From positions 224,001 through 288,000 of the forward strand of contig CAVRQT010000003.1 of NCBI GenBank assembly GCA_963723515.1: a stretch of 64,000 bases of DNA, written 5' to 3'. This DNA is from Vulcanimicrobiota bacterium. Its GTDB lineage: Bacteria > Vulcanimicrobiota > Vulcanimicrobiia > Vulcanimicrobiales > Vulcanimicrobiaceae. The position numbers were made by a program, and so were the translations under genes. Each line of letters begins with the position of its first letter. Positions within the stretch are counted from its first letter, which is position 1. The notes under the pieces are model-generated. The model was not told the origin of the DNA. It saw nothing but the letters and a program-made list of their open reading frames with translations, and searched no databases. Shown one piece after another: positions 10,400 through 15,757 of the stretch.

Positions 10400-11338
10400 G
10401 TGAAAGTCAAAGCACAATTTCCCGATGAAGCCGCCGGCGACGGGCGCTTCATCCGGCAGAAGGATCACTTTCGCGGTTGGATCGGCGCCGGAAGCTCGGA
10501 CTATCCGGCCGTTGCCGGGCGTTACCATCTCTATGTGTCGCTCGCATGCCCTTGGGCGCATCGCACGGTTATCGTCCGCAAGTTGCTGCAATTGGAAGAG
10601 GCGATCGGAATGACGATTGTCGATCCAATCCGTGACGAACGGGGCTGGGCGTTTCGAGATGGTCCCGGATACTCGCACGATCCGATCAACGGGTTCGCTT
10701 TCTTGAAGGAAGCCTATGTTGCAACCGATCCGCAGTATCGGGGGCGCGTCACCGTCCCAGTCCTCTGGGATAAGCAAACGAAAAGAATCGTCAGCAACTC
10801 AGATGACGACATCATGCGCATGTTGGAGACCGAGTTTCTCGAAGTTGCCCGCAATAAGATCGTGCTCTATCCAGCGCCGATCGCGCCAGATATCGATGAG
10901 CTCAACGAAGCGATTTACCAGACGATCAACGACGGCGTGTACCGTGCCGGATTTGCAACGTCACAGGGAGCGTACGAAGAGGCGGCTTATCGCCTTTTCG
11001 ATATGCTCGACGTGCTCGAGAGCCGGCTCGCCGAGCGTCGCTATCTTTTCGGTGAGCAGCCGCTCGAAACCGATTGGCGGTTATTCACGACGCTGATCCG
11101 CTTCGATCCGGTCTACTACTTGCATTTCAAGTGCAATCTGCGGCGCATCATCGACTATCCGAATCTGTTCGGCTACCTCCGCGATCTCTATCAAGTCGAT
11201 GGCGTCGCGCAAACGGTCAACTTCGATCACATCAAACGCCACTACTATTGCACGCATACGGAGATCAATCCGAGCGGAATCGTCCCGATCGGCCCGGCGC
11301 AGGATTTGAACGCGCCGCACGGCCGCGAGCGGCTTTAG
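10400..11338 (+). CDS. Glutathionyl-hydroquinone reductase (YqjG/GST-omega-like)
   Basis: RYHLYVSLACPWAHR, TVPVLWDK, GVYRAGFA, RFDPVY..HFKCN, HIKRHYY. Confidence 0.92.
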   Translation: MKVKAQFPDEAAGDGRFIRQKDHFRGWIGAGSSDYPAVAGRYHLYVSLACPWAHRTVIVRKLLQLEEAIGMTIVDPIRDERGWAFRDGPGYSHDPINGFAFLKEAYVATDPQYRGRVTVPVLWDKQTKRIVSNSDDDIMRMLETEFLEVARNKIVLYPAPIAPDIDELNEAIYQTINDGVYRAGFATSQGAYEEAAYRLFDMLDVLESRLAERRYLFGEQPLETDWRLFTTLIRFDPVYYLHFKCNLRRIIDYPNLFGYLRDLYQVDGVAQTVNFDHIKRHYYCTHTEINPSGIVPIGPAQDLNAPHGRERL

Positions 11339-11344
11339 ATAGGA

Positions 11345-12504
11345 TCAGCGCACGACGCCGAGCTCGAAACCGAAGCGATCTTGATCGGCGTTCGTGCCGC
11401 CTGCACTGAAACCAAGCCCCGCGGTAAACGAAGTGAGCCGAACGTGAGAGTACTCAAACCGCAAGACGCCATAATTTGCAAAGTGGTATGCCGGCGTCAG
11501 TGTTAAGGAAAGTGCCGAGCTGCCCGGACCGAAACCGATTAAGTCTGCGTTACCGCTGTGAGTCCGTCGTAGAGCTGTAATTCCAGACGCTTTCAAACCG
11601 AAATGCAAGTGAGAACGGCGTGCTCCATGCGTACGTGCCCATCAACACAGCTGCCATCGCATTTTCACTCGCGAGTGTAGCCAAGTGAAGATGATGCCGG
11701 CGAATGCACCCACAGCATGTACGGTAGCAACTGCAGTTTCCCGAACTGCCGCGTCAACATCAAATCGTATTCAGCTTTGTTGCCGATCGCGACAGTTGGA
11801 TTGGGGCCGATGTTGCTTCCGGGAACGATACCGGCAAACTGAACGCTCGTATCGGACGATGGGGACCATCCAACGAGCCACTCGATCGCGCGATTATGAC
11901 CGGAGTAATAGGCATCGTTCGCCTCAAGCGTCGCCGTCCATGGGCCACGTGCGTAGATCGCGCGCACGCCGCGGCTTATTGTCGGCTCCATCGTCCACGC
12001 AAGCCCGCGTTGCACGTTGATGTTCTGGTAGGTCATCGGCGACTCTTGACCGAGCAACGAGGCAAATTTTCCGGCTGCAAGACTGAAGTGGCTATCGAAG
12101 TTGTACTGGGCGGCAACAACAGGCAACTGCGAATAGAGCAGTGTATTGGCGCCGCTTTGCGTGCTCTGGTTGATCGCTTCTCCGACCGTTAAGAGGTTGT
12201 AGACGCCGGCGCTTGCAGTCACGCGAAACCGCGCACTACCGGCGGATATGTTAAGAAGAAGATCCGAGATGTCGCCGCGACCGGCCCGATCGCTTCCAGA
12301 CGGCGTATCGAGCGCGCCGGTGTTGTTCACCCCATCGGTGTGAAATCCGAAAATCGTGAACGCGCCGCCGATGATGAGCGGTGGCATTGGCGTCGGAAGC
12401 TCCAGCGGTGTGGGGCTTGGTGATGGAGCTGGCGTTTGTGCGATCGCCGGTGCCGTGATCGCCGCTGCGATCAAACAGACGAAGATAAGAGTGAGTCGGT
12501 GCAT
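11345..12504 (-). CDS. Outer-membrane beta-barrel (porin-like) protein; two frameshifts near 11665 and 11560
   Basis: Signal peptide, Pro linker, AGKF..L.G.E....YQN.N..RG.....P..SRG motif, alternating beta strands, C-terminal RFGFELGV. The middle segment is recoverable in a third frame. Confidence 0.7.
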
Positions 12505-12607
12505 TCTGCCCTCGAGTCTAGCGCGAACGCTCGCTTCCCGGTATCCGTCAAACGGATGATCCAAATGGATATGGGTGACACGGAATAATGGCGCGAACGT
12601 ATAGCGC

Positions 12608-13180
12608 ATGATTGAGTGGATGCATGATTTAGACGCTGCTCTTCAGCGTGCCCGCGAGGAAGAAAAACTCGTCTTGGTCGATGTCTTCAACCCTGGCTGA
12701 GGGGGCTGCAAAGCGTTGGATACCGTGACGTATCCTCAGCCGCCCGTCGTGCAAGTAATCACAGAAAACGCCATTCCCGTTCAATACGACAATTCGAAGA
12801 AAGAGAATGTCGAGGTTCTCAAGCGGCTCCATCACATTTGGACGCCGGATGTGCGAGTTCTCGATGAGAGGGGCGCGGAGCTCTACCGTTGGGACGGCTT
12901 CCTCCCGCCGCCGGAATTCATCGCGCGAGCATTATGCGGCTTCGGGCAAGCGCATTTGCGCCGGCGAGAGTTTGAAGCGGCCGAAAAGCTCTACATTGAC
13001 GTGCTGACGCGCTTCTCGACGACCTATGCGGCTCCCGAAGCGCTCTACTACTTAGGCGTGACGAGGTATCGCAAGAATCCGCTCGGCAACGATCTGCTCG
13101 ACCAGTGGGCCCATCTGCGCGAGCGCTATCCGATGAGCGAGTATCGCGTCAAGCAATCGTTCAAAGAACTGCCGGAATAG
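12608..13180 (+). CDS. Thioredoxin-fold selenoprotein (UxxC) with C-terminal TPR-like helices, 190 aa
   Basis: ATG 12608 reads MIEWMHDLDAALQRAREEEKLVLVDVFNPG-(TGA 12698-12700)-GGCKALDTVTYP, in frame with ORF 12716..13180. Has the cis-Pro WTP motif and a SECIS-like hairpin right after the UGA. Confidence 0.88.
12701..12745 (+). promoter_or_regulatory. Bacterial SECIS element
   Basis: Upper stem GGATAC (12718-23)/GTATCC (12730-35) with G-containing loop CGTGAC; lower stem GGGGGCTG/CAGCCGCCC; 23 nt lie between the UGA and the loop. Confidence 0.78.
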
Positions 13181-13186
13181 TTGACG

Positions 13187-14483
<1,297 letters not shown>

Positions 14484-14502
14484 GGAGAACGAACGCCGCA
14501 TT

Positions 14503-15757
14503 ATGCGAGGCGCAAGCGCAGTCCTATCCCGCAAAAGCGGCTTCGATGTCGAGCAGTTGCTGCCGCCGCAGCAGGCAATCATCACTTTCTTGTCGCGCGC
14601 GGCCCTGCGGCCGGCGCGACGCGAGCGCGTGAATCTGGATGAAGCATCGGGTCGCGTACTCGCCGCCGATCTTATTGCGGATCGCTGCTATCCCGATGCG
14701 CCTCGTTCGACGATGGACGGCTACGCGATTCGTGCGAGCGACGTCCCCGCGGCCTTGCGCATCGTCGACGAAATTCAGATCGGACGTCTCCCTGCGCGTC
14801 GCATTATCCGCTTTGGAGGCAGCGCGCATTCCGACCGGCGGCCTCTTGCCTGTGGGAAGCGACGCCGTCGTTCCGTTTGAGCGCGTCGTCCTCGACGGTG
14901 AGACGATTCGGATCGAGGACGCGGTAGCCGTGGGCGACTGCATCACTCCGCGCGGCGAAGATATAAAGGAAGGCGAGCTGCTCTTTCGCGCCGGCCGGCG
15001 CATCGGTGCAGCGGAGGCCGGGGTCTTGGCGACGCTAGGCCGAGGGCAGATCGAGGTCTTTGCACGTCCTCGCATTGCGGTCGTTTCTTCCGGCGATGAG
15101 CTCGTCGATCCGCAGGCCGATCCCCAACCGGGCCAGGTCCGCGATTCAAATCGCTATGTGATTGCGGCGGCTTTGAGAGCGATGGGAGCCATCGCGACGC
15201 ACTATCCTACCGCGCGCGACCGTGAAGGCGCCTTGGAGGATATTTTGCGTGCCGCGCTCGCGGACAACGATGCGGTCATCGTCAGCGGTGGTTCTTCGGT
15301 CGGAGAACGCGATCGCACGCCCGTTGCAATTGCGGCGCTCGGAGAGCCCGGCGTTATCGTGCATGGCTTGCGCGTCAAGCCAGGCAAACCGACGGTGCTC
15401 GCCGCTATCGACGGTAAACCGATCGTCGGCTTGCCCGGAAATCCAACGTCCGCGCTGATGATTCTCGAGACCGTAGGGGCCCCGATTATTGCGGCAATGA
15501 CCGGCGCGCATCTCATCGAACGCCAAACGGGAGCCCAACTGGAGCAAACCGTGGAGAGCCGAGCGGGTTGGACGTCGTTCGTTCCCGTCGCTCTTTCGCA
15601 AGATGCAGTGCCCTTTCGAGCGCAGCCGCTCGCGATGCACTCGTCGCTGACGAGTTTGTGCGCGCGCGCCGACGGTTTCATCGTCGTCGACGAGGAAACC
15701 AAACGCCTCGAGCGCGGTGCAGCCGTGCGCGTCTATCCGTTTACGAGAGGTTGGTAG
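14503..15757 (+). CDS. moeA: Molybdopterin molybdotransferase; frameshift near 14800
   Basis: GRVLA.D, RSTMDGYA, IPTGG.LP.G.DAVV, SSGDEL, DSNRY, SGGSSVG, KPGKP, LPGNP. Start uncertain (14482 or 14503). Confidence 0.92.

Follow-up and report, generated by a model that had tools for sequence, protein, structure and literature searches.

Does a TGA codon in the middle of an otherwise open reading frame end a gene, or is it read as an amino acid? The question is raised by positions 12608-13180 on the plus strand of the 64,000-nucleotide stretch of DNA analysed here (the window), where a frame of 190 codons has a TGA at 12698-12700 as its sole interruption. We put the probability at roughly 90% that this gene encodes a conserved UxxC selenoprotein with a U-G-G-C motif, in which a thioredoxin fold is joined to a TPR-like domain (Trx-TPR). 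This reading is based on the conserved recoded UGA, the existence of cysteine (Cys) homologs, a conserved hairpin, the selenocysteine (Sec, U) machinery of the genome, and the predicted fold. The parts of the gene are the following:

12608..13180, plus strand: predicted selenoprotein gene, whole; 190 codons and a TAG stop, with a single in-frame TGA (Sec31)
12608..12610, plus strand: start codon ATG; an in-frame ATG is also present in 18/18 orthologs
12614..12907, plus strand: thioredoxin-fold domain, residues ~3-100 (Pfam, AlphaFold2, Foldseek)
12698..12700, plus strand: UGA, putatively read as selenocysteine U31, at the attacking-Cys position of CxxC
12701..12745, plus strand: lower stem of the two-tier fold, 12701-12708 with 12737-12745 in the minimum free energy (MFE) fold; a feature of the window only
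12707..12709, plus strand: TGC, Cys34, the putative resolving Cys of U-G-G-C; invariant in alignment A2 and Cys in 60/69 distant relatives
12718..12735, plus strand: SECIS-like hairpin, stem 12718-12723 / 12730-12735, loop 12724-12729 (CGUGAC)
12842-12847, plus strand: candidate cis-Pro loop T79-P80; P80 is aligned with the P of 'YPT' in 2kuc
12908..13126, plus strand: C-terminal four-helix TPR-like domain, residues 101-173 (AlphaFold2 helices, match to 2xev)
13178-13180, plus strand: stop codon TAG, end of the frame

A mechanical list of open reading frames had begun the gene at a TTG at 12716 (12716..13180, 154 aa). The original prediction extended this frame upstream to the ATG at 12608 and held that no frame change is involved, and both points are borne out: one frame leads from this ATG through the listed start to the TAG ending at 13180. 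With the TGA read as U the N-terminus becomes MIEWMHDLDAALQRAREEEKLVLVDVFNPG-U-GG-C-KALDTVTYPQ, with the local context ...LVLVDVFNPG-U-GG-C-KALDTVTYPQ.... The motif had been described as 'FNPG-UGA-GGC'; the FNPG-U context is correct, but the wording was loose in what follows, where the DNA reads TGA GGG GGC TGC and hence U-G-G-C. By eye, neither a signal peptide nor a membrane segment is visible in the protein sequence, which is why we would place the protein in the cytoplasm.

How general is the TGA among related genes? For a first ortholog set we searched 61 genomes of the same class, the window's own genome included. A strong match covering the U column was present in 18 of them (E 6e-131 to 6e-24), with a TGA inside the match in all 18. 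The remaining matches were weak (E 3e-10 or worse, 23-32% identity) and lay in stop-free open frames of 177-814 aa, mostly about 400-800. The orthologs align to residues 1-190, each with one internal TGA, and the 18 translated loci all carry U at the identical column in the context F-(N/K/S)-P-(G/T)-U-G-G-C; their in-frame ATG lies 0-12 codons upstream of the aligned N-terminus. For a second set we scanned GTDB with each species represented by a single genome; the main seed was a peptide pattern located well away from the active site. Among the best 80 of 99 relatives found in this way the column held TGA in every case, 74 by pattern and 6 by inspection. Seven loci are common to both sets, so that their union comprises 91 loci, one of which (in the 18-locus set as well) comes from the unpublished genome G059 and contributes no more than this one row to the counts. 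The record titles of the loci are mostly Eremiobacterota, Vulcanimicrobiota, Baltobacteraceae, Cybelea or Elarobacter, and a few stand under other depositor labels (Acidoferrum/Acidiferrales, Binatia, Chloroflexi, Limnocylindrales, Proteobacteria).

The presence of TGA in 91/91 loci bears directly on the idea that the gene is a pseudogene or the codon a sequencing error. Such an idea would suit an indel-prone assembly in which serS, selB and fdhA are all interrupted (see below). However, the same TGA recurs in independent assemblies, the gene is without a frame change, and purifying selection is apparent on both sides of the codon; we regard a decayed or misread gene as the least likely explanation of all. 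One ortholog, L029 (G044:C2:301281-301845), has the conserved TGA together with a frame change after about residue 69, due either to decay of this copy or to a fault in the assembly.

Evidence that the region before the TGA is coding comes from the 27 codons that precede it. Their pairwise differences average 0.349, 0.284 and 0.533 at the first, second and third codon position, and no stop occurs across them in 90/90 loci. This is the signature expected of a region that is translated in the same frame as the downstream part. The codon at 12716, where the listed ORF starts, is CTG in most relatives, and the internal start is thus not conserved.

The predicted fold likewise extends across the TGA. 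Thioredoxin_7 (PF13899) matches residues 3-85 with 43.2 bits (cut-off 27, E 4.4e-11), Thioredoxin_2 (PF13098) scores 35.2 bits (cut-off 27) and Thioredox_DsbH is over its cut-off with 28.8 bits, and all three matches span the TGA. Towards the C-terminus TPR_16 (residues 112-156) reaches 23.7 bits, below its cut-off of 32.7. An AlphaFold2 model built on a 14-sequence alignment has a pLDDT of 88.5, falling to about 60 around residues 31-40, and a pTM of 0.87. It places a strand at 21-27, U31, a helix at 32-37 and strands at 55-61, 81-85 and 91-95, followed by C-terminal helices at 101-118, 122-135, 142-156 and 162-173. The model thus has the CxxC-type motif at the N-terminal end of helix 1, as well as P80 as the candidate cis-Pro. 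In a profile search of solved structures, U31 and C34 fall on both Cys of WCGPCK in 2kuc (E 7.6e-10) and on those of DsbD-gamma (E 4.9e-7), and the C-terminal half is similar to a TPR domain, that of YbgF/CpoB (2xev, E 3.7e-6). The best solved Foldseek matches are again 2kuc, DsbD-gamma and other Thioredoxin_7-type domains (E ~3e-5).

Taken as a real stop, the TGA would give two products, an upstream peptide of 30 residues and a TPR-only protein made on its own from TTG 12716 or GTG 12725. This is how the public databases have it: at least 120 homologs, 143-156 aa in length, cover 75-81% of the query (79% in most) under the names 'tetratricopeptide repeat protein', 'TolA-binding protein' or 'hypothetical', and all 120 among the matches listed start after the UGA. 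TGA is also a common stop in this genome. Against termination stand the thioredoxin fold and Pfam domains that span the codon, of which a start after the TGA would lose strand 1 and the active site, the constrained and stop-free upstream codons, the unconserved internal start and the Cys relatives described below, which are continuous across the column. Hence we consider true termination very improbable, although it ranks ahead of the other rivals. With the TGA read as selenocysteine, the original prediction that standard annotation truncates the active site agrees with the public records. Because the records listed start after the UGA, the databases appear to lack the active-site half of the protein across an entire candidate phylum of bacteria from soil and peat.

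If the column is catalytic, distant relatives should be informative about the residue that it carries. A profile of 14 full-length orthologs was searched against 1.84 billion cluster representatives and gave 10,418 matches at E <= 1e-3, 33 of them at E <= 1e-30. The best 150 of these 10,418 comprise 69 proteins of 175-260 aa, 69 shorter than 175 aa and 12 longer ones. In the 69 mid-length relatives among these best 150 the U column is occupied by Cys in 57; the other 12 have Ser (5), a gap (2) or one each of W, N, Q, E and L. At the fourth position of the motif, 60 of the same 69 have Cys. The closest Cys form among the best 150 is P0122, a protein of 194 aa with the motif SPT-C-GG-C (E 4.6e-57). 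The UGA had been predicted to sit at the first Cys of a CxxC motif, and a column holding either TGA or Cys in homologs had been proposed as the check; the alignment with WCGPCK in 2kuc and with DsbD-gamma, TGA in the orthologs and Cys in most of the distant relatives all agree with this, with a single Trp.

That Trp belongs to the metagenome protein P0132, which reads FNPG-W-GGC. Most likely the gene caller translated a TGA under a TGA=Trp code. Many of the relatives shorter than 175 aa among the best 150 start with M-(D/G)-(A/T)-V-T-Y-P, just past the motif, as would be expected if they were truncated calls of additional Sec forms. The P0125 and P0137 clusters (90% identity) hold Cys forms of 188-190 aa alongside forms of 148-150 aa that begin right after the motif. 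These mixed clusters could stem from a recent switch between Sec and Cys in close relatives, or just from truncated gene calls; a metagenome scan for Sec/Cys switching with the Cys form P0125 yielded no confirmed locus. Truncated-looking members were also noted in MAGs of Candidatus Brocadia and Fimbriimonadales (P0301/P0302 and P0305, 147 and 113 aa), so that Sec forms of the Trx-TPR family may exist outside Eremiobacterota.

Does the organism have the means to insert selenocysteine? The original prediction inferred that it does, and the genome holds selA (435 bits), selB, selD (358 bits, G000:C2:780199-781126, minus strand) and a tRNA-SeC(tca) with the typical long extra arm. No other tRNA with the anticodon UCA was found. 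The selB gene adjoins selA and scores 244 bits, just over the cut-off (G000:C2:432826-434673); its frame is broken by one TAG in this assembly, with a 39-residue stretch that matches in another frame, and the gene is intact in the same-genus genome G001 and also in G014 and G049. Similar breaks occur elsewhere. The match to fdhA (G000:C3:1001903-1004910), which has an in-frame TGA, is split into at least three pieces in several frames. In the window serS (13187-14585, minus strand) is divided into two ORFs, 13187..13585 and 13593..14585, with a frame change near 13586-13592, and in G001 both parts lie in one frame (L014 3-386, 408-791). The assembly seems to be indel-prone and the breaks in serS, selB and fdhA seem to be assembly indels; for selB this is argued by the like breaks in the other two genes and by its intact state in relatives. 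Alternatively, selB may have decayed in this one genome.

The selD gene has an in-frame TGA of its own, in the context ...SSCAG-U-ASKLG (a UxxK form), which makes selD itself a selenoprotein gene in this genome, as far as can be told from its sequence. Two hairpins follow the selD UGA, the second with a GUC loop about 33 nt past it. In the class as a whole selA is present in 57/61 genomes, including 18/18 genomes with the Trx-TPR gene. Being near-universal, it agrees with the selenoprotein reading and does not discriminate.

The machinery and the Cys column also bear on readthrough of the UGA as a standard amino acid, be it Trp, Cys or Arg by near-cognate decoding or through a local change of the code. 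The record of P0132 with Trp at the column speaks for it. But TGA terminates 224/572 open frames of at least 400 codons and is therefore not reassigned genome-wide, and a complete Sec pathway is present with tRNA-SeC as the only tRNA for this codon. Moreover, the column is that of a catalytic Cys, where Trp would destroy the function, and such decoding has no use for a conserved hairpin placed like a SECIS. We therefore give readthrough a very small chance, slightly below that of termination and above that of a pseudogene or sequencing error.

The hairpin provides the remaining line of evidence for selenocysteine. In the standard bacterial mechanism Sec is inserted when SelB, together with Sec-tRNA(Sec), acts with a hairpin 3' of the UGA, and the bSECISearch model places the loop about 16-37 nt from the UGA. 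Here a 6-bp stem begins 17 nt after the UGA (GGAUAC-CGUGAC-GUAUCC, 12718-12735). Its apical loop, CGUGAC, has G at loop positions 2 and 4 and starts 23 nt past the UGA. The locus thus has a 3' stem-loop with a G in the apical loop at a distance typical of a bacterial SECIS.

The original prediction described a two-tier stem-loop. The upper hairpin, the apical G and the position of the loop 23 nt past the UGA stand; the lower tier is not conserved. The 66 nt from 12695 do fold into a two-tier stem-loop with an MFE of -22.7 kcal/mol (z = -0.96), and we rejected folding energy as evidence, with 38/200 shuffles folding at least equally well. For the lower stem we compared 12704-12708 with 12737-12741 across the relatives, where only 60.2% of cells pair. 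We accordingly do not count it among the conserved elements, and the two-tier shape belongs to the window, not to the family.

The upper stem was followed in an alignment of 90 sequences (89 distinct rows, G059 omitted). All 6 pairs form in 89/89 distinct sequences, that is in 100% of cells. In 85 rows one of the pairs is A-U, with a G-C double change in 4, another is A-U in 75 rows and G.U in 14, and two further pairs are G-C in 88 rows and G.U in 1, so that G.U accounts for 16 cells overall. In a FastTree protein tree of 86/90 loci (4 with <170 readable residues were dropped) the G-C compensatory variant appears at three separate places, which suggests that the change arose in at least two independent events. 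RNAalifold recovers the same hairpin independently in both alignments.

Synonymous sites point in the same direction. Among invariant degenerate residues in 14 sequences, 3 of 5 within residues 34-42 use a single codon, compared with 3 of 48 elsewhere: C34 TGC, V40 GTG and T41 ACG are fixed in 14/14 sequences, and the compensatory change has its partners in the two Y42 TAC codons. At third positions the divergence is 0.273 over codons +1..+15 and 0.524 over codons +16..+50. The covariation itself is thin, with double changes at one pair in 4 sequences, and controls slid by +1 and +2 score 0.078 and 0.110 compared with 0.072 observed. Hence the case for the hairpin rests on its invariance, the 100% pairing and the frozen synonymous sites. 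The hairpin also overlaps the highly conserved peptide DTVTYP, so that part of the nucleotide conservation is due to protein constraint. An Rfam scan of 12500-12900 at E <= 10 returned no SECIS and only a chance snoRNA match (E 3.8). The 18-mer of the hairpin occurs once in the genome. A SECIS shared with other sites of the genome was considered and rejected: the three sites that come within 3 mismatches lack either a stem or a TGA context upstream.

Taken together, the sel machinery, the TGA or Cys at the column and the conserved hairpin support the interpretation originally given to this gene. If the standard mechanism applies, a ribosome would arrive at the UGA at 12698-12700 while SelB carrying Sec-tRNA(Sec) binds the hairpin at 12718-12735, and selenocysteine would be inserted in place of termination. 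Judged by fold and motif, Sec31 would then sit at the N-terminal end of helix 1 like the attacking Cys of thioredoxins. There it might attack a substrate disulfide or an oxidised thiol, with Cys34 resolving the intermediate via a selenenylsulfide. By analogy with Trx+TPR proteins of the YbbN/CnoX type, the TPR-like domain is likely to hold a client or another protein partner. We infer selenium incorporation, redox role and client binding alike from such comparisons, and the redox and client roles are less certain than the selenoprotein reading.

The gene neighbourhood varies between loci and gives no functional hint. Next to the gene in the window lies serS, an adjacency which the original prediction allowed might be due to chance. 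It is kept only in the same-genus genome G001 (1/17 other loci); a functional link to serS was rejected for this reason, and the adjacency is chance. At other loci the neighbours are unrelated and include DUF2079, MFS, thiolase, Na/H exchanger and dienelactone hydrolase genes. In the window the divergent neighbour (11665-12609, minus strand) is an OmpL-like beta-barrel porin (Pfam BBP2, 86.5 bits) whose listed ATG at 12609 overlaps the selenoprotein ATG. A signal-peptide-like stretch, MHRLTLIFVCLIAAAITAPAIA, starts 35 codons into this porin, so that its true start is probably near 12504. Two genes upstream, at 10400-11338 on the plus strand, there is a glutathione S-transferase-like gene (GST_N_2, GST_C_2). 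A moeA-like ORF, named by eye from its sequence, lies at 14639-15757.

Is the family new? A 2026 review lists 119 selenoprotein families and subfamilies in its Table 1 (PMC13188914). That table has no entry for a Thioredoxin_7+TPR architecture, and neither 'TPR' nor 'tetratricopeptide' occurs in the text of the review. On a broad reading, and comparing by description only, the Trx-TPR protein could be filed under the review's PF13098 entry, because it passes the PF13098 cut-off. The passages covered of the deep-Sep paper (PMC12013277) and of the BSepDB paper (PMC13326102) carry no mention of a Trx-TPR selenoprotein family. A full-text literature search found no paper on selenocysteine in Eremiobacterota, and going by titles and abstracts no paper on a bacterial selenoprotein combining thioredoxin-like and tetratricopeptide parts was found.

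It is possible, though we hold it only tentatively and would sooner doubt it than assume it, that the family is absent from current inventories: Sec-only across Eremiobacterota, with a chaperedoxin-like Trx+TPR architecture, a U-G-G-C centre and an almost invariant 18-nt SECIS over class-level divergence. If this were true, the family would be the first selenium-dependent member of the Trx-TPR client-binding architecture, and it would offer a lineage-specific model of SECIS/SelB recognition. The recoding would restore a thiol/selenol oxidoreductase, as judged from the fold, to Eremiobacterota genomes and add a selenoprotein family to them. The 89 distinct sequences form a very clean natural SECIS alignment, which could be used to train SECIS and selenoprotein predictors.

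How does the protein compare with described systems? No NCBIfam model comes near its cut-off for the Trx-TPR protein. The best selenoprotein match among them is VPGUxxT type 2 (NF041383), which shares the 'PGU' context and a Trx7-like N-terminus. However, it scores 38.2 bits (cut-off 275) and only residues 2-92 match a model of 287 positions; in VPGUxxT the fourth motif position is Thr, whereas it is Cys here. Two further models were rejected, VPGUxxT NF041382 with 13.9 bits (cut-off 350) and Trx7/PDZ NF041199 with 11.6 bits (cut-off 300), and TsoX HSGNPxU (NF045809), SaoT (NF040730) and HUIPC (NF047660) gave no match at E <= 1.

In sequence and fold the closest solved structures are 2kuc, a 'putative disulphide isomerase' from Bacteroides, and DsbD-gamma (TM to target 0.64-0.71). 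Both have Cys-Gly-Pro-Cys or Cys-Val-Ala-Cys in place of U-G-G-C and are without a TPR domain. DsbD-gamma, moreover, is periplasmic and part of a membrane protein, unlike the predicted selenoprotein with no visible signal or membrane segment. The order of domains, a thioredoxin fold at the N-terminus and then a TPR helical domain, is that of YbbN/CnoX (E. coli 3qou, Salmonella 3qdn). The Foldseek match to YbbN is weak (~200 columns, E 1e-4 to 4e-4, TM 0.38-0.42, rmsd 11-12), YbbN gave no sequence-level match at E <= 0.01 in the profile search of solved structures, and it has about 280 residues compared with 190 here.

Among bacterial selenoproteins, those with a UxxC thioredoxin fold are the most common kind. 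The gene described here shares their main traits, with predicted Sec in place of the attacking Cys, Cys homologs and a hairpin just 3' of the UGA, and it differs from them in its best Pfam match, Thioredoxin_7 (PF13899), its TPR-like C-terminus and its U-G-G-C motif. As such the Trx-TPR selenoprotein is a distinct family or architecture of the well-known UxxC kind and not a new mechanism, and the picture of how selenocysteine is encoded is left unchanged.
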